A DNA stretch of 64,000 nt. It comes from Candidatus Omnitrophota bacterium. Its GTDB lineage: Bacteria > Omnitrophota > Omnitrophia > Omnitrophales > JACROU01. Location of the stretch: the NCBI GenBank assembly GCA_029261035.1, contig JAJDCD010000004.1, positions 132,765-196,764 on the forward strand, in the 5' to 3' direction. The notes beneath the pieces are model-generated. The model saw only the letters and a program-made list of their open reading frames with translations. It was not told the DNA's origin and searched no databases. Shown piece after piece: positions 6,046-62,726 of the stretch (position 1 is the first letter of the stretch; the number at the start of each line of letters is the position of its first letter). The position numbers and the translations under genes are program-made.

Positions 6046-7254
6046 CTAAGCTTTACAAACTCTTGCAAATTTTCTCTTCCCACACTGAATAATTACTTCT
6101 TGATCTAAATCAATTTCAAGCTTCGTATCCGTTATTTTTTCTTGATTAACTTTCACCCCACCCTGTTCTATTAGCCGGCGCGCTTCAGATTTACTACTAA
6201 CAAGCTTGATTTCAAACAACAAAGGGCCTATTTCCATCGAACTCTCTTTAAAAGTAAATAAGGGCATATCCTCAGGTAATTTTTTATTCTTAAAAATATG
6301 CTCAAATCCTTCATAAGCTTCTTCTGCTCGAGACTCATCATAATAAAGTGAAACGATTTGCTTTGCTAATTTAACTTTCATTTCTTTGGGGTGAATTTTT
6401 TCTTTATTCAAATCATTCTCTAAAGCATCACATGTAGCTCGATCCCAACCCGTAAAGTAGCGCATATATCGAAGCATTAAAGTATCTGAAACAGACATGA
6501 CTTTACCAAAAATTTCTGAAGGCTCCTCTTGAACTCCAATATAATTACCCAAAGATTTCGACATTTTTTGCACACCATCCGTTCCTTCAAGAATAGGTAA
6601 TGTTAAAACAGCTTGAGGAAACTTGCCATAATCCCTTTGTAATTCACGGCCCACTAATAAATTAAATTTCTGATCCGTACCACCTACTTCTACATCCGAA
6701 TCCACAACCACAGAATCATAACCCTGAAGCAGGGGATATAACAGTTCAATCACGGCTATGGGTAGATTCGATTTAAAGCGCTTATTAAAATCATCTCGCT
6801 CCAGGAGACGCGCCACAGTATATCGAGAAGTCAATGTAAGGAATTCCGTTGGAGACAATGCATCCAACCATTCGGAATTGTATCGAACCTCAGTTTGTTT
6901 TTTATTTAAAATTTTAAAAACTTGTTCTTGGTAAGTAATTGCATTTTGTTTAACCTCTTCTTCAGATAACGCTTTACGCGTTTCCGAAACACCTGAAGGG
7001 TCTCCAATACGCGCTGTAAAATCTCCAATAATAAATACAACAGTATGTCCAAGCTCTTGAATTTCACGAAGCTTTCTTAAAGGAACCGTATGCCCCAAAT
7101 GAATATCCGGAGCTGAAGGATCTGCGCCATACTTAACCCGCAAAGGCCTTTTCTCTTTCGCAGCGATTTCTAGCTTTTTAGAGAGTTCTTCTTCAGAAAT
7201 AAGCTCTTCCGCACCCTCTTTAAATACATCAATCTGATCTTTGACTGATTTCAT
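6046..7254 (-). CDS. tyrS: tyrosine--tRNA ligase
   Basis: Class I HIGH motif (HLGH), a KMSKS motif and a C-terminal S4 domain. 402 aa. Confidence 0.9.
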   Translation of the reverse strand: MKSVKDQIDVFKEGAEELISEEELSKKLEIAAKEKRPLRVKYGADPSAPDIHLGHTVPLRKLREIQELGHTVVFIIGDFTARIGDPSGVSETRKALSEEEVKQNAITYQEQVFKILNKKQTEVRYNSEWLDALSPTEFLTLTSRYTVARLLERDDFNKRFKSNLPIAVIELLYPLLQGYDSVVVDSDVEVGGTDQKFNLLVGRELQRDYGKFPQAVLTLPILEGTDGVQKMSKSLGNYIGVQEEPSEIFGKVMSVSDTLMLRYMRYFTGWDRATCDALENDLNKEKIHPKEMKVKLAKQIVSLYYDESRAEEAYEGFEHIFKNKKLPEDMPLFTFKESSMEIGPLLFEIKLVSSKSEARRLIEQGGVKVNQEKITDTKLEIDLDQEVIIQCGKRKFARVCKA

Positions 7255-14439: not shown

Positions 14440-14542
14440 ATTTAAAGTAATCTAAAACCTTCTTACAACGTGTCATTCCCGAAACCTTTTGTCGGGAATC
14501 CATGATATATCAAACATAACTATACGTTTTACCAAAACCTAG

Positions 14543-14575
14543 ATCCCCGACACAAACATTCGGGGATGACAAACT
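14543..14575 (+). repeat. REP-like hairpin ATCCCCGA-N9-TCGGGGATGACAAACT
   Basis: Family member in the pheA-scpB spacer. A second imperfect hairpin lies at 14472-14505. Confidence 0.55.
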
Positions 14576-14582
14576 GTCCTAA

Positions 14583-15506
14583 TTAAACCTCTTCAGGGTT
14601 TTCTTTATTCTCTTCTTCAGAAGGAGTTTCTTCTTTTGGCTCTTCAGGCATTTCAAACTTCGTATTCGCACTCCCAATAACATCTGTAATCTCCGCCAAA
14701 ACCTTATCTCTTTCTTCAGAGCTAGGGGTATCATCAACTTCTACAGCATCTTTGTTCTCTTCTTCAACAGGAGCTTGATCTTGAGTTTTCTGTTCCAACT
14801 CCAACTCTTCTTTGTTAATCATAGAAGCAACCAGCTCTTTAATTTCACTTATATTTGGCAAATCGTCCAAAGACTTTAATCCAAAATGTTCTAGAAATTT
14901 TTCTGTAGTTCCGTACAACATAGGTCTTCCTGCAATTTCTTTTTTTCCTACAATCTTAATTAAATTTCTATCCAACAATGTAGACAACACTCCAGAAACA
15001 TTAACCCCTCTTAACTCTTCTATTTCCACACGTGTAACCGGCTGTTTATAAGCCAAAATCGCCAAAGTCTCTAACGCAGATTGTGTTGCTTGCTTCTTCT
15101 TTTTCTCGAGCTCCAACTTCATAATCCAAGGAGCATATTGAGGATGAGTCGAAATTTCGTAACCACCCGCTAACTCTTGAACACGAAAACTCAATCCTTG
15201 CTCTATATAGTATTCCCCAAGCTCCTTTAATGCTTTTTGAAACTCAGAGGGTTTAAACCCCTTTACTACCTTTTTCATTTCTTTTAAAGGGACTGGCTTG
15301 TTCGAAACAAACAAAAGAGCTTCAATAATTCGCTTCATAGAATCAAAATCAACTTCTGATTTTTCTTCATAAGTCTCAACATGAGTTTCCGAAACATCTT
15401 CACCCGTTGGAAGTTGTTCTCTAATCTCCCCTTCAATCTCTTTTCTCAACTCTTTAAGTTCTTTTTCTTTCTCTTTTTGCTTTGCTTCCTTCACACTGTT
15501 TCCCAT
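14583..15506 (-). CDS. scpB: segregation and condensation protein B with acidic C-terminal extension
   Basis: Two winged-helix ScpB repeats (IIEALLFVSNKPV; LETLAILAYKQPVTRVEIEELRG). Confidence 0.8.
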   Translation of the reverse strand: MGNSVKEAKQKEKEKELKELRKEIEGEIREQLPTGEDVSETHVETYEEKSEVDFDSMKRIIEALLFVSNKPVPLKEMKKVVKGFKPSEFQKALKELGEYYIEQGLSFRVQELAGGYEISTHPQYAPWIMKLELEKKKKQATQSALETLAILAYKQPVTRVEIEELRGVNVSGVLSTLLDRNLIKIVGKKEIAGRPMLYGTTEKFLEHFGLKSLDDLPNISEIKELVASMINKEELELEQKTQDQAPVEEENKDAVEVDDTPSSEERDKVLAEITDVIGSANTKFEMPEEPKEETPSEEENKENPEEV

Positions 15507-16390: not shown

Positions 16391-16423
16391 TTAGCGTAGA
16401 GCGTTTAGCTTGGAGCGTATAGG
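16391..16423 (-). promoter_or_regulatory. heptad-repeat element (CTNNNCG)x4 plus CTAATAA upstream of scpA
   Basis: Gene-sense CTATACG CTCCAAG CTAAACG CTCTACG CTAATAAGCCGAGGATAAAAAATG. Confidence 0.5.
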
Positions 16424-16452
16424 TTTCCTTTGTCTTTTTTAGGCAAAAGATC

Positions 16453-16483
16453 TATCCGCTCCACGCTATGCGCTAAACGCTAA
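16453..16483 (+). repeat. second heptad-repeat copy in inverted orientation, abutting the trpS stop
   Basis: CTATCCG CTCCACG CTATGCG CTAAACG CTAAT. With 16391-16423 it forms a roughly 31-bp imperfect inverted repeat around a 30-nt loop. Confidence 0.5.
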
Positions 16484-17530: not shown

Positions 17531-17565
17531 TATAGCATAAAGAGCGTGTAGCGTAGAGCGGATAG
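17531..17565 (-). promoter_or_regulatory. heptad-repeat element upstream of trpS
   Basis: Gene-sense CTATCCG CTCTACG CTACACG CTCTTTATG CTATA. Confidence 0.45.
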
Positions 17566-17734
17566 TACGTAATTAGTCCGTTTTATGTCATTATTGGGGA
17601 AGCAAGAATCCGATACTCCAAAAGAATTAAGGCTAGAAACAATAGGCAAGGCCTGTATCCCCAACTTTAGAGGGGATGAAAATTTTGAATATAAAGACAG
17701 AAGACCCTATCCTCTATGTGCTAAACGCTCTACA

Positions 17735-18565
17735 CTAGAAGAAGGAAATAATGAGTGTGATAAAACCCACAAAAAAGCAGTAATAGGAAAATAAATAGAA
17801 ATTGCCTCGGATAACGATTCTTGAAAGGATCTTAATCGCCACCAAACCAACAACAAAAGCCACCAAAGCACCAATTATATAAAGAAAAATCTTATCTGTA
17901 GCAAATTGAGAAATGTCTTTTAATTTAAAGACAAAGGCACCTAAAATTGTAGGAATAGAAAGAATAAAGGAAAAGCGAAATGCCAAATCACGACTCAAAC
18001 CCAGCTTCAACCCTGTCGCAATCGTCATTCCAGAACGAGAAACACCGGGCAAAATTGAAATAGCTTGAGCAAGCCCAACAATAAAAGCATCTTTCATTGA
18101 AAGGTCGTTCAACGATTTTTCATTGTACGGAGAAACGCGAGTCAATAAAATAACCCCTCCTGTAAAGATAAGAGAAAGCCCCACAACCAAAAGAGAGTTA
18201 AAAGACTGCTCTATTTGATCCGAAAAATAAACTCCGACACAACCTGCTGGAATCACAGCTATCAAAGCATAAATGAATAATTTTAAATTTTGATTCCGAT
18301 ACATAATATCTTTTACTCGGTTTCCATCAAAAAGTTCACCAAAAGCACTAAGGCTATCGAAAAGGATGTTCAGAAGATCTCTATGGAAATAAACAATAAC
18401 AGACATTAAAGTTCCCATATGAAGCATAATATTCAATTCCAACTGAGCTCCTTCAAAACCCAAAATTTTCTCCATAATCACAAGATGCCCTGAACTAGAA
18501 ATAGGGAGAAACTCCGTAAATGCTTGAACAACAGCTAAAAATATAATTTGAATTAATTCGGTCAT
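17735..18565 (-). CDS. uppP: undecaprenyl-diphosphatase
   Basis: BacA/UppP N-terminal signature FTEFLPISSSGHL and eight predicted TM segments. Confidence 0.85.
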   Translation of the reverse strand: MTELIQIIFLAVVQAFTEFLPISSSGHLVIMEKILGFEGAQLELNIMLHMGTLMSVIVYFHRDLLNILFDSLSAFGELFDGNRVKDIMYRNQNLKLFIYALIAVIPAGCVGVYFSDQIEQSFNSLLVVGLSLIFTGGVILLTRVSPYNEKSLNDLSMKDAFIVGLAQAISILPGVSRSGMTIATGLKLGLSRDLAFRFSFILSIPTILGAFVFKLKDISQFATDKIFLYIIGALVAFVVGLVAIKILSRIVIRGNFYLFSYYCFFVGFITLIISFF

Positions 18566-19662: not shown

Positions 19663-19698
19663 CTATTAGCGCATAGCGTTCAGCGGATAGCGGATAGG
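19663..19698 (-). promoter_or_regulatory. heptad-repeat element upstream of manC
   Basis: Gene-sense CCTATCCG CTATCCG CTGAACG CTATGCG CTAATAGACAAAGGACAAAAAATG. Confidence 0.5.
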
Positions 19699-19726
19699 CT
19701 CATTTGCCTTTTTCCCCGACCCAATT

Positions 19727-19811
19727 GTCATCCCCGACTTGATCGGGGATCTAGTGTCTTTTGCATTCAACTATCCAATGGATCCCGGATCATGTCCGGG
19801 ATGACAAACTA
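19727..19811. repeat. two adjacent REP-like hairpins in opposite orientation
   Basis: GTCATCCCCGACTTGATCGGGGATCTAG (19727-19754) and GGATCCCGGATCATGTCCGGGATGACAAACT (19781-19811). Confidence 0.6.
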
Positions 19812-19822
19812 CTTTTAAAAAG

Positions 19823-21181
19823 CTACTTTATTTTTTCCAGAAGTTCATTAACACGGTCTTCGATAGTTCTTCGGATCTCTTCAAGTCGCTTTTCGGTATT
19901 TGCTTCAAAACGCATAACAACGACAGGCTGGGTATTAGAAGCTCGAATCAACCCCCACCCATCTTCGAATGTAACACGAGCTCCATCAATGTCATTCACA
20001 TTGAGACCTTGTCGTTTAAAACTTTCTGTAGCTTCCTTAACCAGTTCAAACTTTCGATCGTCAGAACATTCTCTTCGAATTTCAGGGGTAGCAAAAGTTT
20101 GAGGGATTTCCGAAAGCATTTCTGATAGTGATTTATCCGAGTTTGCAACAATCTCTAATAACCGACAAGCCGTATAAACACCACTATCAAAACCAAACCA
20201 TCTGTCTTGATAAAAAATGTGCCCACTCATCTCTCCCGCTAACTCAGAATCCGTCTCTTTCATTTTTGCTTTAATTAAAGAGTGCCCTGTTTTCCACATA
20301 ATGGCTTTACCACCATGAGCTTCGATATCTTCATACATCAAGTTGCTGCATTTAACATCTCCAATAATCGTAGCTCCCTTTTTCCTTGATAAAACTTCTC
20401 TAGCAAGCAAGATCATCAAGCGATCACCAAACACGATATTTCCTTCGTTGTCCACAACGCCAACACGATCACCATCTCCATCAAAAGACAATCCTAAATC
20501 CACCTTGGATTTTTTAACTTTCCCTATCAATTCTTCTAGATTTTTAGGGACCGTAGGATCTGCTGGATGATTAGGGAATGTTCCATCAAGCTCTGTGTAC
20601 ATTTCCTCTGTCTTACACCCCAACTTCTTAAATACTTCAGGAGCTACAACCCCCGCCATTCCATTCGCACAATCTATAATAATAGACAGTTTTTTCTTCA
20701 ACTTAATTTGACTCACAATTTCATCAATATATTTATCTAAAATTTTAACGGAAGATGCCTTCCCTTTCCCTTCAAGAAAAGTTCCAAGTTGCATCATCTT
20801 ATACAACCCCTGAATCTCTGAGCCATGCATCGACGTCGTACCCACACAAATTTTTAAACCATTGTGATCCGGAGGATTATGACTGCCCGTCACCATAATT
20901 CCACCATCCACTTTCAAATGATGAATCGAATAATAAAGAGCCGGCGTCGTAACTAGACCTAAACGCTTTACATCCATCCCCGTCGAAGTGATCCCATCCA
21001 CTAACGCTTTCTCAATTCTTTTGGAACTAACACGACAGTCATGACCGACCGTCACAACTTTCTTCTTTGCATGCTTCAGCTGAGTTCCATAGGCTTTACC
21101 AATCGCTTCAACAACCTCTGAGGTCAAATCCGTATCAGCAACCCCTCTAATATCATATTCTCTAAAAATTTGTGGGTTCAT
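19823..21181 (-). CDS. manB: phosphomannomutase/phosphoglucomutase
   Basis: Active-site phosphoserine loop TGSHNPPDHNGLK and metal-binding loop FDGDGDR. Confidence 0.85.
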   Translation of the reverse strand: MNPQIFREYDIRGVADTDLTSEVVEAIGKAYGTQLKHAKKKVVTVGHDCRVSSKRIEKALVDGITSTGMDVKRLGLVTTPALYYSIHHLKVDGGIMVTGSHNPPDHNGLKICVGTTSMHGSEIQGLYKMMQLGTFLEGKGKASSVKILDKYIDEIVSQIKLKKKLSIIIDCANGMAGVVAPEVFKKLGCKTEEMYTELDGTFPNHPADPTVPKNLEELIGKVKKSKVDLGLSFDGDGDRVGVVDNEGNIVFGDRLMILLAREVLSRKKGATIIGDVKCSNLMYEDIEAHGGKAIMWKTGHSLIKAKMKETDSELAGEMSGHIFYQDRWFGFDSGVYTACRLLEIVANSDKSLSEMLSEIPQTFATPEIRRECSDDRKFELVKEATESFKRQGLNVNDIDGARVTFEDGWGLIRASNTQPVVVMRFEANTEKRLEEIRRTIEDRVNELLEKIK

Positions 21182-21295: not shown

Positions 21296-21362
21296 CTTGT
21301 TTTAAATTATGCCTGGCCCGCCAGACGAAGCTGAGGGCACGAAGAGTGCCTTAGCGTAGTCT
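21296..21362 (-). repeat. conserved tRNA 3'-trailer element (GC hairpin GTCTGGC-CCG-CCAGAC plus TTAGCGTAGTCTGG), copy 1
   Basis: Shares about 55 nt with the segment directly 3' of tRNA-Arg at 44333-44386. Confidence 0.5.
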
Positions 21363-33725: not shown

Positions 33726-33759
33726 CTATAGCGCACAGCGTTTAGCGTAGAGCGTATAG
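33726..33759 (-). promoter_or_regulatory. heptad-repeat element (CTNNNCG)x4 plus CTATAG immediately upstream of nadK
   Basis: Gene-sense reading CTATACG CTCTACG CTAAACG CTGTGCG CTATAGT, ending 6 nt before the ATG. Confidence 0.5.
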
Positions 33760-40106: not shown

Positions 40107-40213
40107 GTCATTGCGAGGCATTAGAAAGTCGAGCCGTGGCAATCTCAGATTAAGGGAAGAAAGGTCCGTCTCAAAACCAAGAGATTGCCGCAGCTCCTTT
40201 GTGGAAGCCTCTC
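40107..40213. repeat. nested inverted-repeat element (GTCATTGCGAGG...GCCGTGGCAAT / ATTGCCGC...CCTCTCAATGAC)
   Basis: Same architecture and end sequences as the element at 42987-43093. Confidence 0.6.
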
Positions 40214-40304
40214 AATGACTGATTTATAAAAAACTATCATCTGTCTCTGATATAATACGAGTCATTACCCACTTTCATCACTTATAAACTACCGAGGGAC
40301 TACC

Positions 40305-42539
40305 ATGAGACATCTCCTTTTTGTTCTATTATTTTTAGTTATTTCTACCCCTTTTGCTGAGGCCAGCATTATCGGAGCATTAGAGAACGTAACTCGACAA
40401 ATTGAGTCCGGAGGTTCATCTAGTAACAACACCTCTTCATCCTCCAGCTCAAGACCTTCTAGCACCACAAATACCAACCCCTCACAATATGAAACTCAAT
40501 ACCCAACACTCATGCCTTCAGACGGAAGCAGTGGCTCTGTTATGTCTATCGATCCAACAACAGGCACAGTGACTCAAAGCTCTTTAAATCCTGATGGCTC
40601 CAGAACGGTAACCGAAACAAACGCGGATGGAAATACAACAGAAGAAGTAATCCCTGAAGATCAACCGGATAGTGCCTCTTCTCTAGATTCCGAAACCGGA
40701 ATCACAACTACTTCCGTTGAAAACCCAGATGGGTCTCGTACTGTTATTGAAACGGATGCCGAAGGCAACATCGTAAGTTCAACACGTGTCCCATCAACGC
40801 AAACAACATCTGCCTCTGCTACAGATCCTGACACAGGCATCACAACAACATCTACTCGAAACGCAGACGGATCTAGAACCGTCACACAAACAGACGCGGA
40901 TGGAAATGTTTTAAATACGCGGAATGAACCCGCTCGTGGTTCAGGAAGATCTTCTGCTTCTTCTACAAATACAGATACTGGCGTTACAACAACTTCAACT
41001 CGCAATGCCGATGGCTCTAGCACAGTTACAGAAACAGACTCTCAAGGTAATACCCTCAGTTCGCGCAACGAGCCCGCCCGAGGATCACGCCCAGACTCTG
41101 CATCCGCCACCGACACCCGTACAGGAAATACAACAACATCCACTCGAAACGCAGATGGCTCTCGCACCGTCACTCAAACAGACTCTCAAGGAAATACTCT
41201 TTCAACACGAACAGAACCTAATAGAAATTCAACACCTTCTTTTGCATCTTCAACCGATTCTAATACAGGAATTACAACAACTTCGACTCAAAATGCCGAT
41301 GGCTCTCGTACGGTCAATCAAACAGACTCTAATGGCAACCTTCTCAATTCTCGAAGAGAACCTGCTCGTGGCTCGAGTCCAAGCTCTGCTTCTTCAACGA
41401 ACACCGATACAGGAGTCACTACAACATCGACTCGCAATGCAAACGGCTCCCGTACGGTTACTGAAACGGACGAGCAAGGAAATACATTAAATACTAGGAA
41501 CGAGCCTGCTCGTGGTTCCCGTCCAACATCTGCATCTGCCACAGATACAAATACCGGAATCACAACAACGTCCACTCGCAATACAGACGGTTCGCGTACC
41601 GTTACCGAAACAGACGAGCAAGGAAATACCTTAAATACAAGAAACGAGCCTGCTCGTGGTTCCCGCCCTACTTCAGCTTCAGCAACGGATACGAATACAG
41701 GCATTACAACAACGTCCACACGCAATACGGACGGATCTCGTACCGTTACCGAAACAGACGAGCAAGGAAATACCTTAAGCACCCGAAACGAGCCTGCTCG
41801 TGGAACAACCCCCTCTTCTGCTTCTGCGACAAACCCAGACACAGGAATTACAACAACATCAACACGTAACCCGGATGGTTCTAGAACTGTGACTCAAACG
41901 GATAAAGATGGAAATGTGTTAAATACACGCAACGAACCCGCCAGAGGAACAGGAACATCCTCCGCCTCTTCAACAAATACCGATACAGGTGTCACAACGA
42001 CATCCACTCAAAACGCAGATGGGTCTCGTACGGTTACAGAAACAGATAAAGACGAAAATGTTCTAGGCTCTCGCAACGAACCCGTATCAGGTACAGCCCC
42101 CTCTTCGGTAACATCAACAGATATGCTGTCAGGAGCACAAACAACCTCTACTATGAATCCCGATAAAAGCAGAACCCTTATCTTAAAAGACAAAGATGGA
42201 AAAGTAATTTCGAAAGAAACTACATATGGGTCCACAGGAATCGTTTCTAAAGTAACTTATAATAAAGATGGAACAGCTTTATTTATTCAAAAGGATGGAA
42301 GAGGTAGAACACTGATGGAAAAATCCTTCGCAAAAGTGCTGCAACCTAAATTTAGAAATCAAGCCATTGATATTCTATTTAACGTATCTAGACCGCAGGT
42401 GTACTCCTTACCTGGTTTTGCCAGCGCTCCTGGTTATCCAGCAACTCCAGACAAAACGGTTATCAATAATTCTTTAGGAGAAAAGATACAAGAGTACGAA
42501 GGCCCTCCTCGCGATTATGATGGGTCCAATTACCAGTAG
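40305..42539 (+). CDS. secreted Ser/Thr-rich tandem-repeat surface protein (putative adhesin-like)
   Basis: Signal peptide MRHLLFVLLFLVISTPFAEA. About 11 tandem 48-aa units (SASATDTNTGITTTSTRNxDGSRTVTETDxQGNTLxTRNEPARGSRPx), then a non-repetitive C-terminal domain. Confidence 0.75.
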   Translation: MRHLLFVLLFLVISTPFAEASIIGALENVTRQIESGGSSSNNTSSSSSSRPSSTTNTNPSQYETQYPTLMPSDGSSGSVMSIDPTTGTVTQSSLNPDGSRTVTETNADGNTTEEVIPEDQPDSASSLDSETGITTTSVENPDGSRTVIETDAEGNIVSSTRVPSTQTTSASATDPDTGITTTSTRNADGSRTVTQTDADGNVLNTRNEPARGSGRSSASSTNTDTGVTTTSTRNADGSSTVTETDSQGNTLSSRNEPARGSRPDSASATDTRTGNTTTSTRNADGSRTVTQTDSQGNTLSTRTEPNRNSTPSFASSTDSNTGITTTSTQNADGSRTVNQTDSNGNLLNSRREPARGSSPSSASSTNTDTGVTTTSTRNANGSRTVTETDEQGNTLNTRNEPARGSRPTSASATDTNTGITTTSTRNTDGSRTVTETDEQGNTLNTRNEPARGSRPTSASATDTNTGITTTSTRNTDGSRTVTETDEQGNTLSTRNEPARGTTPSSASATNPDTGITTTSTRNPDGSRTVTQTDKDGNVLNTRNEPARGTGTSSASSTNTDTGVTTTSTQNADGSRTVTETDKDENVLGSRNEPVSGTAPSSVTSTDMLSGAQTTSTMNPDKSRTLILKDKDGKVISKETTYGSTGIVSKVTYNKDGTALFIQKDGRGRTLMEKSFAKVLQPKFRNQAIDILFNVSRPQVYSLPGFASAPGYPATPDKTVINNSLGEKIQEYEGPPRDYDGSNYQ
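40550..42140 (+). repeat. intragenic 144-bp tandem repeats (about 11 copies, near-identical in the centre)
   Basis: The three consecutive central units are nearly identical at the protein level and at the nucleotide level. Antisense ORFs in this span are frame artefacts of the repeats. Confidence 0.8.
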
Positions 42540-42544
42540 ATTAG

Positions 42545-43095
42545 AAGAAGATTTTGTCATCTCCTCCTTGATCCATTTGTCATCCCCGAATGCTTTAATC
42601 GGGGATCCAGTCAGACAAAACGATTAATTTAGAAATTAAATAAAGCACAAACACATGGATCCCCGCCTTCGCGGGGATGACAGAAAAGCGCGGGAAGATA
42701 CAAGAATAGGACGGTCCACCTCGAAATTATGATGGAAAATTTTATGGGTAGATTTACGCTTGTCATTATTTAATTCAAAGACCCTAGATTCCCGCCTACG
42801 CGGGAATGACAAACACTTTTATTCATTCTTGTCATCCTGAACTAGCGCCTGCCCGCCGTCTTGCCCGCCACGAAAAACGGCGGGTCCGCCAGCTTATTAG
42901 GAGGATTGGGCGGGAAGGATCTCAGACTCAGAGATTCTTCGTCGCAAAGCTCCTCAGAATGACAGCTGTGTAGAAATTTAAATCCGTCATTGCGAGGCTA
43001 AAACAAAAAGAGCCGTGGCAATTTCAGGTTTTTACTTCTTATTCATCCCGAGATTGCCACGGCTCAATATGTCGATACCTCGCAATGACAGTTTT
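42545..43095. repeat. cluster of REP-like palindromic elements (BIME-like) in the 580-bp intergenic region
   Basis: At least six hairpins with GTCATC/GATGAC-type ends: 42578-42610, 42656-42682, 42786-42812, 42830-42895, 42921-42965 and 42987-43093. Confidence 0.7.
42697..42751 (+). repeat. degenerate duplicate of the 3' end of the repeat-protein gene
   Basis: GATACAAGAATAGGACGGTCCACCTCGAAATTATGATGG..TAG closely matches the gene terminus GATACAAGAGTACGAAGGCCCTCCTCGCGATTATGATGG...TAG. Confidence 0.55.
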
Positions 43096-43120
43096 TCTAT
43101 AAGCTAATGGCTGACAGCTT

Positions 43121-44089: not shown

Positions 44090-44140
44090 TCTATTTCCTC
44101 CCACTTTTTATGTATTACGAATTATATCTAAATCAGGATT

Positions 44141-44250
44141 TCCCCTCTCCCTTTTTAAGGGAGAGGGCTAGGGTGAGGGTTTGAGTTGATTTAGAATTTA
44201 CCATTAAACCACCCTCACCTTAATCCTCTCCCTCCAAAGGAAGGAGAGGA
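44141..44250. repeat. nested palindromes built from GGGAGAGG / GGTGAGGG motifs
   Basis: CCCTCTCCCTTTTTAAGGGAGAGGGCTAGGGTGAGGGT ... ACCCTCACCTTAATCCTCTCCCTCCAAAGGAAGGAGAGG. Confidence 0.5.
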
Positions 44251-44278
44251 AAATTCAAAGACATTCACTTGTCTGCCT

Positions 44279-44304
44279 GGATTCCCGCCTCCGCGGGAAT
44301 GACC
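44279..44304 (+). repeat. REP-like hairpin (GGATTCCCGCCTCCGCGGGAATGACC)
   Basis: Same family as 42786-42812 and 58234-58260, including the shared CCTGGATTCCC lead-in. Confidence 0.6.
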
Positions 44305-44332: not shown

Positions 44333-44386
44333 TAACGTCTGGCCCGCCAGACAAAGCCAATGACACGCTAGTGCTTTAGCGTAGTC
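44333..44386 (-). repeat. conserved tRNA 3'-trailer element, copy 2
   Basis: GTCTGGCCCGCCAGAC hairpin plus TTTAGCGTAGTCTGG immediately 3' of tRNA-Arg, homologous to 21296-21362. Confidence 0.5.
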
Positions 44387-49002: not shown

Positions 49003-49062
49003 TTAATTCTTTCCTCCATTTATCCTTGTTAAATTCAAATTTCGTTTATTTTCTGTCATTCT

Positions 49063-49136
49063 GAGGAGCCTAGCGACGAAGAATCTCTTTGTCTAAGATC
49101 CTTCACTCCGTTCAGGATGACAAAAAACTAAAAACT
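49063..49136 (+). repeat. two-hairpin intergenic element (GTCATTCTGAGG..GAAGAATCT..AGATCCTTCACTSCGTTCAGGATGACA), copy A
   Basis: Near-identical architecture and stems to 59957-60033. The first hairpin also occurs in inverted orientation at 42921-42965. Confidence 0.65.
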
Positions 49137-52371: not shown

Positions 52372-52662
52372 TTACACGCGAATCTGGCTTTTAATCCTCT
52401 CAAAGGTCTTGGGGCCAATACCCTTTACATTGACGATTTCGTCAATAGAATCAAAGGTTTGATAGACCCTTCGATACTCCAGAATCCGATCCGCGTACTT
52501 AGGACCAATACCCGTAATTTGCTGCAATTCTTCCTTTGTGGCTGTATTGATATTGATCTGGGTTCCTTCAGGTTGAGGGATTTCCTCTGCATTTACTGAG
52601 GACACCCCCATCAAGGCCACCAGACCCAAACAGACTAGAATTAGCTTACTTCGATTCATCAC
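52372..52662 (-). CDS. comEA: ComEA-like helix-hairpin-helix DNA-binding protein with signal peptide
   Basis: Signal peptide plus two HhH motifs (LQQITGIGPKYADRILEYR; VNVKGIGPKTFERI). Confidence 0.7.
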   Translation of the reverse strand: MMNRSKLILVCLGLVALMGVSSVNAEEIPQPEGTQININTATKEELQQITGIGPKYADRILEYRRVYQTFDSIDEIVNVKGIGPKTFERIKSQIRV

Positions 52663-54896: not shown

Positions 54897-55553
54897 ATGG
54901 GAAATACAATAAAAATCAAAAAACATCCTACAAAAAACAATCCTAATTATTTTTTAATAGATTCAGACTTTTTTGTTAATAGATACCTATCTAAACATTT
55001 GTCATATTTAAACCTAAACTCGGGAAATAGTGGTGAAGAATCAATAGAAAAAAGTGCTTTATGGTGGAATGAAATTAATTCTCAGCTAAAAAATGAAATA
55101 GCTTATCTATTTATTCCAAATGTTTGCATTTCAGAGACATTTAAAGTCCTAGCTAAAAGACAATACGACAAAGATGAAAAAATCATTAAGAAATATAAAT
55201 ATTACAAGGAGTTAATCGATGAAATTTCAGAAGATCTTCATGTCAACCCTAAACTTCCCGAAACACAGAAGAAAAAACAAAGAATTCATGACCTAGAAAC
55301 AAACCGTGATATTGTTATTGGAACAGATAGATTTTTAAGGTTAATAATGAAAAATGGTTATAAAACAATATCAACATTTGATTTAATGTTGCTAGTTCAT
55401 GGAAAGTTGCTTTTGAAACATTACAACTTTAATAAGAGAAATCTCTTTATTATTACAGGAGATAAAACGCTATACAATGCCTCTAAACCATTTCCTGATA
55501 TTCCACGAGTATGCTGTCCTAACATAAACTCATTTGATAGTTCATTCGATTAA
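54897..55553 (+). CDS. PIN-domain nuclease-like protein
   Basis: Acidic quartet in canonical PIN order: FLIDSDFF, ISETF, HDLETNRD, TFDLML and FIITGDKT (T-x-D). About 30% GC. Confidence 0.5.
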   Translation: MGNTIKIKKHPTKNNPNYFLIDSDFFVNRYLSKHLSYLNLNSGNSGEESIEKSALWWNEINSQLKNEIAYLFIPNVCISETFKVLAKRQYDKDEKIIKKYKYYKELIDEISEDLHVNPKLPETQKKKQRIHDLETNRDIVIGTDRFLRLIMKNGYKTISTFDLMLLVHGKLLLKHYNFNKRNLFIITGDKTLYNASKPFPDIPRVCCPNINSFDSSFD

Positions 55554-55643: not shown

Positions 55644-58058
55644 CTAAAATGGTAAAGAAGATTTATTTTTAAGTAAATAATATTTTGCATGTGCAATCAA
55701 GAAAACCTTGTTTCTAAAGAAAAAGAACCTTTTTTCTCCTAACTTCTTTTTCAAAATCTTAACATCATCGAATGGTTTATCGGCCTTTTTATCATAACCT
55801 AGCATGTAACTCTTATTAAACAAAGTCTCTATTAGCTTCTCTTTTTTTAACTGATTAAACTTAAACTCTCTAAGAATCTTGATAAATTTCCTATACTCAA
55901 TCTGCTTACCATGATACTCTTGCAACCTTGTAAGAATTTCGGATATTTCTGGAAACTCAGCCCTTGTTTCTGCTATTAAATTATTATTCAAAAACTCTGT
56001 ATAACTTGTAATAGCATATTTTAAGTCCTTTCTATCTACTTTGTGATTGCCATTATTGATAGCAGACTCGAATAACTTTGCAACAAAATATATTAAGTCT
56101 CTTGGACGCTTCGTAATAATCTCCTGTATTATTTCAAAAGGGTGCCTTTTCTCTTTAAAGTTAAAAAATTCCCTCCATGCTTTTTTTTCTAACAATTCAC
56201 TGTCGGACTCATCCAATTTTAATATATGCGCAAATCTATTCTCAATTAACTTTTTTAATAGGCCCGGATAATCTTCCCAGTTTATATAGTGAGCCATAAG
56301 AACTAACTTATCAGGCTCTGCTACCTCGTTGCGAATATAGTTGAATATATCTTCTCTTAAAAAAATAATTTGTTTAACCTCAACCTGAGAATCTTTACTA
56401 AGTAATTCTTTTTGTATTTTATTTTCTATCTCTAATAAAGTACTCATCATCTCTGATTGTATTTTAAGATCATTTTTGGGATCCCAAGTCTTATCTAAAT
56501 TGTCTGCTAAAACAATCACTTTATAGTATTTTTTTCTAATTGATGTAAAGTAATTACGCAAACATGCAGTTAATGGCGAAAGGTATTCTTTAAAAAGAGT
56601 CTCCATGACCTCGGGACCGGAAATCTCCCTTGAATTTGTTCTTCTAACATTAACTTCTCGAACAACTCCAAAAAAGTTAAGCTTAGTGAACTCTTCATTT
56701 TTTTCTACAAAATTTATTATAGCTTCCTCCTCATCAGTCATTGTTACACTATTTTTTTCATCAAGTATACGCTCCACAATAGAAATAGCTAGTTTTGAAA
56801 AAATTACTAATTTCCACACAGCAACAAAAAAGCTTATTCTAGAAGAATCAAATAGTTTGGACAGCTGAATGTCATCAAGCAATTCATCAGACTCAGGTTT
56901 CAAACTAACAATATAATTATTTTTTTCTTCTGGCAAATCATCAGATAATTTGATGTAGATAGCAGATTTTCCACTACCTTTTCGCCCAACAACAATCGAC
57001 TTTTTATAATTTAATGCTTTTTGATATGAAGCAGTATTAACAAAATAACTTAAGAGTTCCCGACTCTCATTCTCTGCTATGTCACACCCAATACCCAACT
57101 CGATTAAATTTGTTTCATGTTCTATGATTTCACTCTTCTCTTGCGTTGTATCAAAAGCTAGTTGTTTGTCCAACCAAGGACTAATAAATTCCTTTATTTC
57201 ATCAGAAATTTCATAAGTAACCAAAATATCATGGTAATCTAAAGGTGGTTTGAACTTTGCAGGTGCAAGCAACAAAACATCACATCCCCATCCACAAGCA
57301 ACTCCAGCATAAAAAGCATTTTTTGCGTTTTCCATAAATGAATTTTGATAATTCTCTCCTAAAAGATGAATAAGAACCACTCTTGCCTTTAAAAGGTTCT
57401 GAAAATACCAAGTTAATGTTTGATATTTAATTTCAGATAAATCATCTGCAACAAGAGATAGTGACTTATTGTCTTTATAATCAATAATATGGTCCGTAAG
57501 CTCTATTGAATCTTGAGTTGCAAGTTTACTTTGAATATAAAATATGTCTGTACTTTTAGAGGTTAGATTTTTAAAATTCACAAACTTATTTAAAAGATTA
57601 TTTTCAAAGCTTTTTTGCTGAAGGGCTTTCTGGATACAATATGAATTTTTAAAAGGTATATAACGAATATCTTTTAGAATAAATTCTTTGTAAATCTTAT
57701 TGGGAAACCCAAGCTCATTATTAACACTAATATTTTCATTAATTAAGATTAGAATATATTTATTTTTTGCTATAGCATATCCAAGCTCAAACAAAACATT
57801 GTGATTAAAATACGTCAGATCACACACAAAAACTTCACTTCCGTCAATTGCTGAAAGGATTTCCTTACTAATTGTAGTTGTTTGTTTATATTCCTCCCAA
57901 CTTCTAGCTTTATAAGTTTTTTGGTGTTGATTAAAGGCTTCAATCGCCTTTTTAATTGATTCAACATTGTTATCAGCTAACCCATTAGAACGTCCTTGAT
58001 AAGCAAAAAATATTTTTTTTTGTGGTAATTCAGAATTTTTTGATACCATTATTACCAA
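55644..58058 (-). CDS. tandem NDT/TIR-like Rossmannoid domains fused to a P-loop NTPase (candidate defence/conflict protein)
   Basis: Residues about 15-110 KIFFAYQG...EVFVCDLTYFNHNVLFELGYAIAKNKYILIL (nucleoside 2-deoxyribosyltransferase-like FE(L/I)GYA motif). Second degenerate copy ...NAFYAGVACGWGCDVLLLAPAKF. Walker A VVGRKGSGKSAIYI and candidate Walker B YKVIVLADNLD. About 400 aa helical C-terminus. About 29% GC. Confidence 0.55.
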   Translation of the reverse strand: MVIMVSKNSELPQKKIFFAYQGRSNGLADNNVESIKKAIEAFNQHQKTYKARSWEEYKQTTTISKEILSAIDGSEVFVCDLTYFNHNVLFELGYAIAKNKYILILINENISVNNELGFPNKIYKEFILKDIRYIPFKNSYCIQKALQQKSFENNLLNKFVNFKNLTSKSTDIFYIQSKLATQDSIELTDHIIDYKDNKSLSLVADDLSEIKYQTLTWYFQNLLKARVVLIHLLGENYQNSFMENAKNAFYAGVACGWGCDVLLLAPAKFKPPLDYHDILVTYEISDEIKEFISPWLDKQLAFDTTQEKSEIIEHETNLIELGIGCDIAENESRELLSYFVNTASYQKALNYKKSIVVGRKGSGKSAIYIKLSDDLPEEKNNYIVSLKPESDELLDDIQLSKLFDSSRISFFVAVWKLVIFSKLAISIVERILDEKNSVTMTDEEEAIINFVEKNEEFTKLNFFGVVREVNVRRTNSREISGPEVMETLFKEYLSPLTACLRNYFTSIRKKYYKVIVLADNLDKTWDPKNDLKIQSEMMSTLLEIENKIQKELLSKDSQVEVKQIIFLREDIFNYIRNEVAEPDKLVLMAHYINWEDYPGLLKKLIENRFAHILKLDESDSELLEKKAWREFFNFKEKRHPFEIIQEIITKRPRDLIYFVAKLFESAINNGNHKVDRKDLKYAITSYTEFLNNNLIAETRAEFPEISEILTRLQEYHGKQIEYRKFIKILREFKFNQLKKEKLIETLFNKSYMLGYDKKADKPFDDVKILKKKLGEKRFFFFRNKVFLIAHAKYYLLKNKSSLPF

Positions 58059-58233: not shown

Positions 58234-58260
58234 GGATTCCCACCTTCACGGGAATGACAA
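58234..58260 (+). repeat. REP-like hairpin (GGATTCCCACCTTCACGGGAATGACAA)
   Basis: Family member with the CCTGGATTCCC lead-in. Confidence 0.55.
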
Positions 58261-58330: not shown

Positions 58331-59941
58331 ATGAAGAGCTACCGTTTCTTATTCACCCTTCTTTTACTCTACCCCTTTCTCATTCTCACCCTTTCTGCTT
58401 TTCGGCCGGGGCCTGTGAACTCTCCTTTTGTGGAATATCAGGAGCCGGAGTTTTTGACTTATGAGGAGCTTCAGGAGTTGAGTCGGAATCCGGAGCCAAA
58501 TCGGAAGTTGAAGGCTAAGCTTGAGCGATTTTGGAAGACCCCTATTATTAGTAATGAGGCTTATATTCAAGGGATGATGCCTGCTGTGAAGAAAAATCGG
58601 CGTTTGGGCACCTTTATGCGAGTTGCGAGTTGGAATATTGAGAAGTCTCTTAATATTCCAGATGCGATTACTGTGTTTACTTCTCCTGAAAAATTTAAGG
58701 GTTTGATTAACACAGATATTCCTGTGGGTTCTACGGATTATGAATATATTCTTTTGCAGCAAAAACGGTTGATGACTTCGGATGTTGTGATCTTGCAGGA
58801 AATGGATATCGGGGTTAAACGATCGGGTTATAGGAATGCGACTGCCGATTTAGCCAAGGCGATGAATATGAATTACGCCTATGGGCCAGAACAGTTGGAA
58901 GTGGATCCTGTGATTCTGAGTCTTGAGAGTTTAAAGTTTGAAGATGATCGTTTGGATGAGGAAGCTACAAAATACTTTAGAGCCGACCCTGAGAAAGTGA
59001 AAGGGGTTTTTGGGAGTGCTGTTTTGTCTAAGTACCCTATCAAGTCTGCAGAGGTGTTTCAGTTAGAGACTCAGACTTATGATTGGTACTCCGGAGAGAT
59101 AAAGAAAACTACGTTTCTTGAGAAAGGGCGAAGAACGGGTTCGAAGACTGTTTTTAAGAATGAGTTGACGCGTGAGGTTAAGGTTGGCGGGCGAATTTTT
59201 TTTAGAGTGGATTTGTATGTGCCTGAGCTTCCGAATGAGACGTTGACGGTGATTAATGTGCATCTTGAGATTAAGTGTACGCCTAAAGGGCGTGAAATGC
59301 AGATGAAAGAGATTTTGAGTTATATTAAGGATATTAAGAATCCGGTGATTTTGGCTGGGGATTTTAATTCTGCCCCTACCGATTTGAGTCCGACGTCGGT
59401 GACTCGGGTTGTGAAACGGACGGCAAAGAATCCGACGACTTGGCTTTCTGTTGGGATTAATTATTTTACGGCTGAGGGGGCTACGATTAACACTTCCCGC
59501 TTTCTTTCTAATGCGACGAAGAATTTTCAAAATCCTTTGGCGAAGCATATTCCGATTGTGGCTCCGAATGCCGTTAAGGGGTTGTTTGATCGGGTTGAGT
59601 ATTTTCGGTTTAAGGATGATGGGGTTTTTGATTTTCGTGGGAATGGTGAAAGGTCGATGAATGGGAAGGATAAGAAGTTGGCTAATTCGAATGAGAGGGA
59701 TTTGATTGGGTTTAAGACGACGTTTCGTGTGAGACGGCCTATTGGGTTTATTGGGAAGTATCGATTGGATTGGATTTTTGTGAAATCGTTTTTGAAGGAT
59801 GGGAACGATGATTTTGGGTCGTATCGGTTTGCTCCGCATTTTGGGGAGACGCTTGAGGAGATGAATACGAGTTTGGTGAGAGCGGTTTCGGATCATCATC
59901 CGAATGTGGTGGATTTGCCTTTTGAGGAGCCGGGGGTTTAG
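58331..59941 (+). CDS. secreted endonuclease/exonuclease/phosphatase (EEP) family protein
   Basis: Signal peptide and EEP motifs: VASWNIE, ILQEMD, VINVHLE, AGDFNS and SDHHP. GC-rich and G+T-rich coding strand. Antisense ORFs 58364-58762 and 59063-60043 rejected. Confidence 0.65.
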   Translation: MKSYRFLFTLLLLYPFLILTLSAFRPGPVNSPFVEYQEPEFLTYEELQELSRNPEPNRKLKAKLERFWKTPIISNEAYIQGMMPAVKKNRRLGTFMRVASWNIEKSLNIPDAITVFTSPEKFKGLINTDIPVGSTDYEYILLQQKRLMTSDVVILQEMDIGVKRSGYRNATADLAKAMNMNYAYGPEQLEVDPVILSLESLKFEDDRLDEEATKYFRADPEKVKGVFGSAVLSKYPIKSAEVFQLETQTYDWYSGEIKKTTFLEKGRRTGSKTVFKNELTREVKVGGRIFFRVDLYVPELPNETLTVINVHLEIKCTPKGREMQMKEILSYIKDIKNPVILAGDFNSAPTDLSPTSVTRVVKRTAKNPTTWLSVGINYFTAEGATINTSRFLSNATKNFQNPLAKHIPIVAPNAVKGLFDRVEYFRFKDDGVFDFRGNGERSMNGKDKKLANSNERDLIGFKTTFRVRRPIGFIGKYRLDWIFVKSFLKDGNDDFGSYRFAPHFGETLEEMNTSLVRAVSDHHPNVVDLPFEEPGV

Positions 59942-59956
59942 GGAGTAATCGATTGT

Positions 59957-60033
59957 CATTCTGAGGGATTTGGCAAATGCGCCGAAGAATCTTTTTGTCA
60001 GAGATCCTTCACTGCGTTCAGGATGACAGGGGG
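59957..60033 (+). repeat. two-hairpin intergenic element, copy B
   Basis: GTCATTCTGAGG...GAAGAATCT...AGATCCTTCACTGCGTTCAGGATGACA, matching copy A at 49063-49136. Confidence 0.65.
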
Positions 60034-60040
60034 TTATATG

Positions 60041-60220
60041 CACCAGTCTTTGGTCTGCTGGGTTTTCAGTATTAGCAATTTTAAAGATTTTGGGAATATA
60101 TGTACCCGTCTTGGGTCTGCTGGATTTCGAGTATTAGCAATTTTAAAACTTTTGGGAGTATACGCACCCGTCTGGGTCTGCTTGGATGTGTTGTATTAAC
60201 AATTTTAAAGATGTTGATCC
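60041..60220 (+). repeat. three tandem direct repeats of about 62 bp
   Basis: Units at 60041-60104, 60105-60166 and 60167-60220 share CCCGTCTTGGGTCTGCTGG..GTATTAGCAATTTTAAA..TTTTGGGAGTATA at about 80% identity. There are no unique spacers between them. Confidence 0.8.
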
Positions 60221-60439: not shown

Positions 60440-60517
60440 TGGCGTCCCCAAGGGGATTCGAACCCCTGTCGCCAGAATGAAAATCTGGTGTCCTAGGCCT
60501 GACTAGACGATGGGGAC
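60440..60517 (-). tRNA. tRNA-Glu (anticodon TTC)
   Basis: GTCCCCATCGTCTAGTCAGGCCTAGGACACCAGATTTTCATTCTGGCGACAGGGGTTCGAATCCCCTTGGGGACGCCA closely resembles bacterial tRNA-Glu. CCA is encoded. Confidence 0.85.
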
Positions 60518-62590: not shown

Positions 62591-62605
62591 GGGACTTCCT
62601 TTCGG

Positions 62606-62726
62606 TGACTGTCATTGGCCTGCTTTTAGCAGAGCACAGTGACTGTCACCCAAAACTCATTTTAATCACGGTTCAATAATAGTGACAGTCACTTTGCTCT
62701 GCGGTACGCAGGCAAGTGACAGTCAC
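62606..62726. promoter_or_regulatory. array of four GTGAC(A/T)GTCAC palindromes (putative operator sites / large hairpin)
   Basis: Copies at 62606, 62639, 62682 and 62716. Copies 2 and 3 sit inside a longer inverted repeat (GCAGAGCACAGTGACTGTCAC / GTGACAGTCACTTTGCTCTGC). The array lies between the pepA stop and the start of the membrane-protein gene. Confidence 0.55.

Follow-up and report, generated by a model that had tools for sequence, protein, structure and literature searches.

Short palindromes recur in the intergenic spacers of a 64,000-nt stretch of a Candidatus Omnitrophota genome (GenBank assembly GCA_029261035.1, contig JAJDCD010000004.1, positions 132,765 to 196,764 of the forward strand; this whole stretch is hereafter the window), which raises the question of what class of repeat they represent and what enzyme, if any, recognises them. 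A sequence-only reading of this DNA had taken them for repetitive extragenic palindromic (REP) elements mobilised by a RAYT transposase. Our analysis suggests that they are probably REPs of the CGTC-1 type, i.e., oriented hairpins with a CGTC or TGTC tag that are recognised as single-stranded DNA (ssDNA) by a nuclease of the Ssn type. This repeat class has already been described and is very widespread; its occurrence in an Omnitrophota lineage, with three coexisting families, is newly seen here.

Tagged hairpins in the window

The window has a GC content of 38%, carries almost all of its genes on the − strand, and is 10.6% intergenic. Derived from the conserved end, the consensus of the main hairpin family (family A) reads (T/G)GTC-AT-YCC(C/G)G-loop-C(C/G)GGR-AT-C(C/T)A, and nine full copies are present, all of them intergenic, with the tag on the + strand in three and on the − strand in six (the sign after each coordinate marks the strand on which 5'-TGTCAT... 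is read). This copy number is far above chance: CGGGRATGAC, with at most one mismatch, was matched 12 times against 3.4 expected, a count reached in 0 of 100 shuffles, and the strict 27–32-nt pattern TGTCATYCCCGN{6,11}CGGGRATCYA was matched six times in the window and never in 100 shuffles. The head GTCAT[CT]C[CG] occurs 15 times, and is followed by the complementary arm in nine of these cases. An Rfam search of the window returned four tRNAs only. The repeated intergenic palindrome in both orientations described by the sequence-only reading is therefore real; eight start positions had been listed for it, and one copy (14471–14502) had been missed.

Six of the nine family A copies form three inverted doublets with their tags outside, at 14471–14571, 19726–19806, and 42578–42682, and the spacers inside these doublets are unrelated to one another. 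In the first doublet, the left half (14471–14502, +; TGTCAT TCCCGA...TCGGGA ATCCA) faces a right half (14540–14571, −) located 12 nt past the stop codon of the open reading frame (ORF) 14583..15506(−). The second pairs 19726–19753 (+) with 19781–19806 (−), the latter with a CCCGGA/TCCGGG stem variant and 17 nt past the stop of ORF 19823..21181(−), and the third pairs 42578–42609 (+), 39 nt past the stop of ORF 40305..42539(+), with 42656–42682 (−). The remaining copies are singletons on the − strand, found at 42785–42811 (TGTCATTCCCGCGTAGGCGGGAATCTAG), at 44277–44304 between tRNA-Arg and a hydrolase gene, and at 58234–58259 in a divergent promoter region.

When folded as ssDNA, eight of the nine copies form an 8-bp stem (−7.3 to −9.7 kcal/mol) whose first pair follows GTC directly and which leaves both the tag and the 3' C(C/T)A tail unpaired. 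The copy at 58234 is degraded, with a weakened stem of six Watson–Crick pairs and −3.8 kcal/mol, no better than shuffles. The tag is TGTC in eight copies and GGTC in one (44277–44304), the tail is CCA in six and CTA in three, and the loop measures 4–5 nt in six and 9 nt in three. Standard pairs fill all 68 scored stem cells, one of them being a G-T in the 58234 copy (a mismatch in DNA), and two stem positions covary, one between T-A and C-G (four versus five copies) and the other from C-G to G-C in a single copy. All nine copies share, without variation, GTC, the first two stem pairs (A-T and T-A), and the C that follows the stem. The compensatory stem changes and the conserved end that had been read from the sequence are both supported.

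Two further families share the GTCAT...ATC frame of family A, occupy the same intergenic regions, and likewise form doublets with tags outside, and both fold weakly (−1 to −5 kcal/mol). Family B doublets span both strands at 40107–40220, with GTCATTGCGAGGC...GCCGTGGCAATCTC on each strand in the tag and tail design of family A and with a weak, bulged stem, and at 42986–43094, with the same motif. Family C doublets are located at 42830–42964 (GTCATTCTGAGGAGC...CGAAGAATCTC plus GTCATCCTGAAC...GAAGGATC), at 49055–49122 between glyS and ppdK, and at 59955–60027. In the first of these, the 5-nt centre of one hairpin loop is replaced by ~71 nt, which hold a further tagged hairpin, CGTCTTGCCCGCC...GGCGGGTCC, at 42857–42889. 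All eight dimers of the window (three of family A, two of B, and three of C) are head-to-head (HH, tags outward), and family A has neither tail-to-tail (TT) nor head-to-tail (HT) dimers. Overall, the three families amount to 19 tagged hairpins in 64 kb, and the convergent spacer 42540–43120 (581 nt) consists almost wholly of interleaved tagged hairpin units from all three. The clusters that had been pointed out at 42.5–43.1 and 44.1–44.4 kb are genuine, with other repeat families also inside them.

Beside the first cluster, the last ~60 nt of ORF 40305..42539 and ~25 nt downstream, including TTGTCAT (42483–42567), recur with 73% identity and an in-frame stop at 42695–42775, on the far side of doublet 42578–42682, which indicates that DNA was locally duplicated or rearranged at this cluster. 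This ORF encodes a 744-aa secreted Thr/Ser-rich protein with about ten 144-nt (48-aa) repeats, and its GC is raised (0.46).

Relation to CGTC-tagged REPs and Ssn motifs

REPs have been split into a GTAG-tagged superfamily, GTAG being the tag of RAYT-associated REPs, and a CGTC-tagged superfamily (Di Nocera, De Gregorio and Rocco 2013, PMC3733652). In the latter, the tag CGTC is often TGTC (or CCTC), the stem has 8–9 bp with A-T pairs at positions 1–2, the loop has 4–5 nt, the 3-nt tail is near CCA, and dimers are predominantly HH, rarely TT, and negligibly HT; the CGTC-1 group includes dRS3 of Neisseria and RPE-6 of Rickettsia conorii (PMC3733652). Family A follows this description, with a CGTC-type tag, a stem of 8 bp in eight of nine copies, the A-T/T-A start in all nine, a CCA-type tail, loops of 4–5 nt in six of nine, and HH dimers. 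Further likenesses are the presence of several families per genome and the absence of an associated transposase: unlike GTAG repeats, those with a CGTC tag are not linked to transposase genes of the RAYT or any other kind, and do not flank RAYT genes in RAYT-encoding species either (PMC3733652). The window differs in its mosaic clusters, which the same authors called rare outside Neisseria and Wolbachia. In this respect, the interleaved units of spacer 42540–43120 resemble the dRS3-bounded mosaic elements of Neisseria (NIMEs) and the bacterial interspersed mosaic elements (BIMEs) of enterobacteria, although the window units are tagged hairpin doublets and not RS-type repeats, and NIMEs have a proposed role in recombination. 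The 2013 survey found CGTC repeats in Proteobacteria, Chlorobi, Bacteroidetes, Spirochaetes, and Thermotogae, and reported none for the PVC group or Omnitrophota (PMC3733652).

The Neisseria member of this group has been linked to an enzyme. Half of the copies of dRS3 (ATTCCC-N8-GGGAAT) are contained in the Neisseria Transformation Sequence (NTS), a 28-nt oriented hairpin with the consensus CGTCATTCCCGCGMAVGCGGGAATCYRG (Chenal et al. 2025, PMC11893778). SsnA, a 94-aa GIY-YIG nuclease (cd10448), binds and cuts NTS as ssDNA only, and it cuts the tagged strand only, a few nt 5' of the motif; mutagenesis showed that binding depends most on the C after the palindrome, and cutting on the three bases that precede the palindrome (PMC11893778). 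Across phyla, Ssn-related motifs (SRMs), a recent new name for hairpins of this type, flank ssn genes, with at least one nearby for 71% of the homologs and motifs on both sides for 42% (PMC11893778). The window hairpins are near-identical in sequence to this NTS/SRM family, in which a (C/T)GTC tag, a ATTCCCGCG...CGCGGGAAT stem, and a C(C/T)RG tail recur, and are likewise intergenic and clustered; hundreds of copies per genome have been reported for the NTS/SRM family. Of the features that define an SRM, the 5' HGTC tag abutting the stem is represented by GTC in nine of nine copies (the single GGTC copy falls outside H), and the C directly 3' of the palindrome, after ...RAT, is present in all nine. 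The published SRM expression, HGTCWYN(0-2)YYVSBRHN(0-5)WNVSBRGN(0-2)RNCYNB, fits four of the nine (19726–19753, 19781–19806, 42656–42682, and 42785–42811). For NTS itself, the search rule of its authors allows at most one mismatch to the 28-nt consensus; since the best window copies, 42785–42811 and 44277–44304, carry two and the others at least four, we regard the copies as NTS-like and not as strict NTS. The window further differs from the NTS/SRM family in its host, an Omnitrophota metagenome-assembled genome of 38% GC, and in its varying stems (CCCGA, CCCGGA, and CCCGC).

The tagged hairpin is spread across phyla. The strict family A pattern was detected in more than 120 IMG/VR stretches among the matches listed, with GC ranging from 0.32 to 0.71, the commonest form being TGTCATTCCCGCGCAGGCGGGAATCCA, and families B and C are as widespread in IMG/VR as family A. 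As a control, the tagged hairpin was found in only two of 80 unrelated loci (1.29 Mb), the control set, which also served as a synteny hint, being relatives from an adenine phosphoribosyltransferase (APRT) search (≤60% identity among the matches listed).

We then considered which genes neighbour the hairpins, from both directions. In 351 hairpin-selected IMG/VR loci, a home-built profile recovered seven Ssn homologs, all of which have tagged hairpins no more than ~100 nt away, and where both flanks were visible, the arrangement was hairpin(+)-ssn-hairpin(−) with the tags outward. Starting from Ssn instead (38 IMG/VR loci from an Ssn alignment), a tagged hairpin was located at ≤250 nt in 20 of 38 loci and on both sides in 14, with the tags outward in 12 of these 14. 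Hairpins of the window type thus bracket ssn genes in the IMG/VR samples analysed, as SRMs do. A search of the hairpin-selected loci with a single E. coli RayT query yielded one weak match (E 5.6e-5). For families B and C, the only recurrent neighbours were structural genes of related phages, along with one Ssn by a B-like hairpin.

A metagenome search with the family C junction as a probe retrieved four contigs from other lineages (GC 0.43–0.53). On an unrelated metagenome contig of GC 0.50 (L434), family C doublets at 77–221 are 83–86% identical to those of the window and lie directly downstream of apt (APRT 285–788), and the relative position of the window cluster at 44.1–44.4 kb matches that of these doublets after apt. 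On the putative phage contig 3300028840_006884 of IMG/VR (loci L037 and L073, GC 0.375), all 16 tagged hairpins, mainly of families A, B, and C, are on one strand, a complete bias unlike the situation in the window.

Turnover, a possible mechanism, and alternative readings

The named pyruvate phosphate dikinase (PPDK) neighbours of the window protein are ~70–76% identical to it and all from Candidatus Omnitrophota. One relative (L437; PPDK ~83–86% identical, GC 0.389) is collinear with the window at 35–64 kb; its four family A hairpins and roughly five B-like ones are in spacers other than those of the window. Across 16 orthologous spacers, tagged hairpins were found in the window only in three, in L437 only in four, and in both, with different elements, in two, so that hairpin content differs at nine of 16. 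The spacer between the hydrolase and the repeat protein measures 11 nt in L437 versus 581 nt in the window. In two distant Omnitrophota (L439 and L440; PPDK 74–75%, GC 0.46–0.47), no tagged hairpins were detected in 45 kb. Because the sites in L437 differ and L439 and L440 have none, we conclude that these hairpin families expanded in one lineage and turn over fast. The gain and loss between the two syntenic genomes is rapid, as would be expected of mobile or highly recombinogenic repeats. As for the repeat protein encoded at 40305–42539, its ortholog in L437 is shorter (600 aa).

By homology with the NTS of N. meningitidis, a mechanism can be proposed in which the tagged strand would fold whenever the DNA becomes single-stranded, i.e., in replication, repair, transformation, or conjugation. 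An Ssn-family GIY-YIG nuclease of ~95 aa would bind the stem and the 3' C, and would cut a few nt 5' of the tag on the tagged strand only, sparing duplex DNA and RNA. A tags-outward doublet would offer one cleavable copy per strand, and dispersal would probably proceed through Ssn nicking together with host repair or recombination. The source genome presumably encodes an Ssn, which by analogy may act on the window copies, and this Ssn, or the repair that follows its nicks, may be what spreads the hairpins. Since their geometry equals that of the pair bracketing ssn genes, the window doublets plausibly descend from a hairpin-ssn-hairpin unit, minus the gene.

Several observations weigh against this proposal. 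No Ssn was found in the 64-kb window by regular expression, three home-built hidden Markov models, or tblastn with 120 Ssn homologs, nor was any found in 74.8 kb of Omnitrophota relatives. Five of the nine family A copies lie outside the SRM expression, because of three 9-nt loops, one G before GTC, and one stem G-T. To our knowledge, there is no demonstration that Ssn moves DNA, and its cutting of each strand once, beyond the ends of a tags-outward dimer, is a geometry unlike IS200/IS605 excision. Of the genomes with more than 200 SRMs, 19% had no Ssn homolog, and changing the palindrome while keeping the hairpin abolished the activity of N. meningitidis SsnA (PMC11893778), so that the CCCGA and CCCGGA stem variants are not to be assumed to be active substrates.

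The tblastn search gave one weak match inside the window, at 42797–43018 (E 0.006), for one of the 120 homologs and in a gapped alignment that contains a stop codon. It is an artefact of the hairpin itself, which translates to ...YAGMTN and thereby mimics the YIGVTN motif.

Beyond recognition by an Ssn-type nuclease, a stronger proposal is that the doublets are mobile elements that originate from hairpin-ssn-hairpin units and are active but non-autonomous, spread by a GIY-YIG ssDNA nuclease with host repair. Families B and C, which keep the GTCAT...ATC frame but fall outside the SRM expression and fold weakly, may be additional classes of substrate served by Ssn paralogues of their own. The differing hairpin content at nine of 16 spacers and the tagged hairpin nested in one loop are in line with such elements. 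We consider this proposal speculative and, on balance, doubtful; if true, transposition or homing would here follow a route with no characterised counterpart.

Alternatively, the repeats may be orphan relics, spread by an Ssn-type or other enzyme that has since been lost and now drifting or recombining passively. This would account for the absence of a partner gene from the 64-kb window and the 74.8 kb of relatives, and it would agree with the decayed copy at 58234, with the share of SRM-rich genomes that lack Ssn (PMC11893778), and with the notion, raised in the 2013 survey, that the CGTC families are dying out (PMC3733652). However, eight of nine copies retain perfect stems, and the contents of nearly all orthologous spacers differ between two genomes that are still collinear, suggesting recent gains as well as losses. 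Intact stems and fast turnover together speak for activity in the recent past, and we deem the relic explanation unlikely.

The hairpins could also act mainly as RNA, by terminating transcription or stabilising the 3' ends of mRNA, without any DNA enzyme of their own, an idea already raised on the basis of their proximity to stop codons. This proximity stands for three of six sites, located 12–39 nt past a stop codon between co-directional or convergent genes; the stems are stable, and REPs are mostly found downstream of ORFs and are probably transcribed (PMC3733652). The terminator part fares less well, as a hairpin-plus-T-tract scan was passed by one of nine copies only, and this on the strand opposite the upstream gene. 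In addition, both orientations occur (three + and six −), one copy lies in a divergent promoter region, and the unpaired tag and tail are strictly conserved across very different GC contents, which points to sequence-specific recognition by a protein and not to structure alone. A primary role as RNA is therefore improbable in our view, and any RNA effect could still be incidental to the repeats being transcribed.

Finally, mobilisation by a RAYT, an IS200/IS605-like Y1 transposase encoded elsewhere in the genome, is very improbable: the hairpins do recall REP/REPIN elements in being short intergenic palindromes that keep one unpaired end and covary in their stems, in their REPIN-like inverted doublets, and in their BIME-like mosaic clusters, but the tag is (T/G)GTC in nine of nine copies and not GTAG, CGTC-tagged REPs are never found beside RAYT genes (PMC3733652), and the hairpin-selected loci held one weak RAYT match against seven hairpin-flanked Ssn genes. 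The window contains no RAYT-like ORF in its 64 kb, as had been noted from the outset, and no RAYT gene was found in 74.8 kb of Omnitrophota relatives. A REP-RAYT pair is typical of one lineage and passes on mostly by vertical descent, whereas the window hairpin is near-identical across phyla and common to contigs of 32–71% GC. The two systems would have in common that a dedicated small nuclease recognises ssDNA, with a HUH/Y1 transposase in one and a GIY-YIG hydrolase in the other. What remains of the sequence-only reading is thus a REP-like family with an asymmetric conserved end, covarying stems, doublets, and BIME- or NIME-like clusters, without the RAYT.

Neighbouring features and significance

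Other repeats are interspersed with the tagged hairpins. Within the cluster at 44.1–44.4 kb, an inverted pair of a different repeat (44139–44252) consists of a hairpin CCCTCTCCC...GGGAGAGGG followed by RGGTGAGGG; because the same motif recurs in 11 IMG/VR loci retrieved via tagged hairpins, it appears to represent another widespread co-occurring family. A conserved trailer of ~50 nt with the palindrome GTCTGGCGGGCCAGAC lies directly 3' of tRNA-Leu (21313–21361) and tRNA-Arg (44336–44386), both on the − strand, and scores as terminator-like at 44336–44353. An AGCGT-rich short repeat, AGCGTGTAGCGTAGAGCGGATAG and its complement, unrelated to the tagged hairpins, occupies intergenic positions 16392–16476, 17543–17565, 17706–17737, 19666–19690, and 33737–33759. 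Three tandem 62-nt units with 69–84% identity (60030–60215) adjoin a family C doublet and tRNA-Glu, and a long inverted repeat of GTGACAGTCAC units spans 62605–62726, the same unit being found in L437 at ~6650–6690, in a different spacer.

The segment 54491–60581 (~6 kb), which contains the family A singleton at 58234–58259, is absent from L437, where 680 nt with tRNA-Glu are found instead. It has a low GC content (0.305 at 56–58 kb), ends near tRNA-Glu (60440–60517), and encodes a PIN-like protein (54897–55553), a Sll1717-family P-loop ATPase (55644–58058), and an endonuclease/exonuclease/phosphatase-like protein (58331–59941). It looks like a tRNA-adjacent island, possibly one related to defence. 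An ORF for a ComEA-like helix-hairpin-helix (HHH_3) protein at 52372–52662 is found in the same place in L437, L439, and L440, and is relevant here only since Ssn and NTS modulate natural transformation in Neisseria.

Taken together, these results correct a plausible but wrong annotation, "REP, therefore RAYT", and assign the repeats to the CGTC-REP/Ssn-motif system. Their high-density occurrence extends CGTC-type repeats to an Omnitrophota lineage, a group for which the 2013 survey reported none, and provides gene-less doublets with the same tags-outward geometry as the pair found around ssn genes. With hairpin positions that turn over almost completely between two collinear genomes, this pair offers a usable natural experiment on how such repeats spread.

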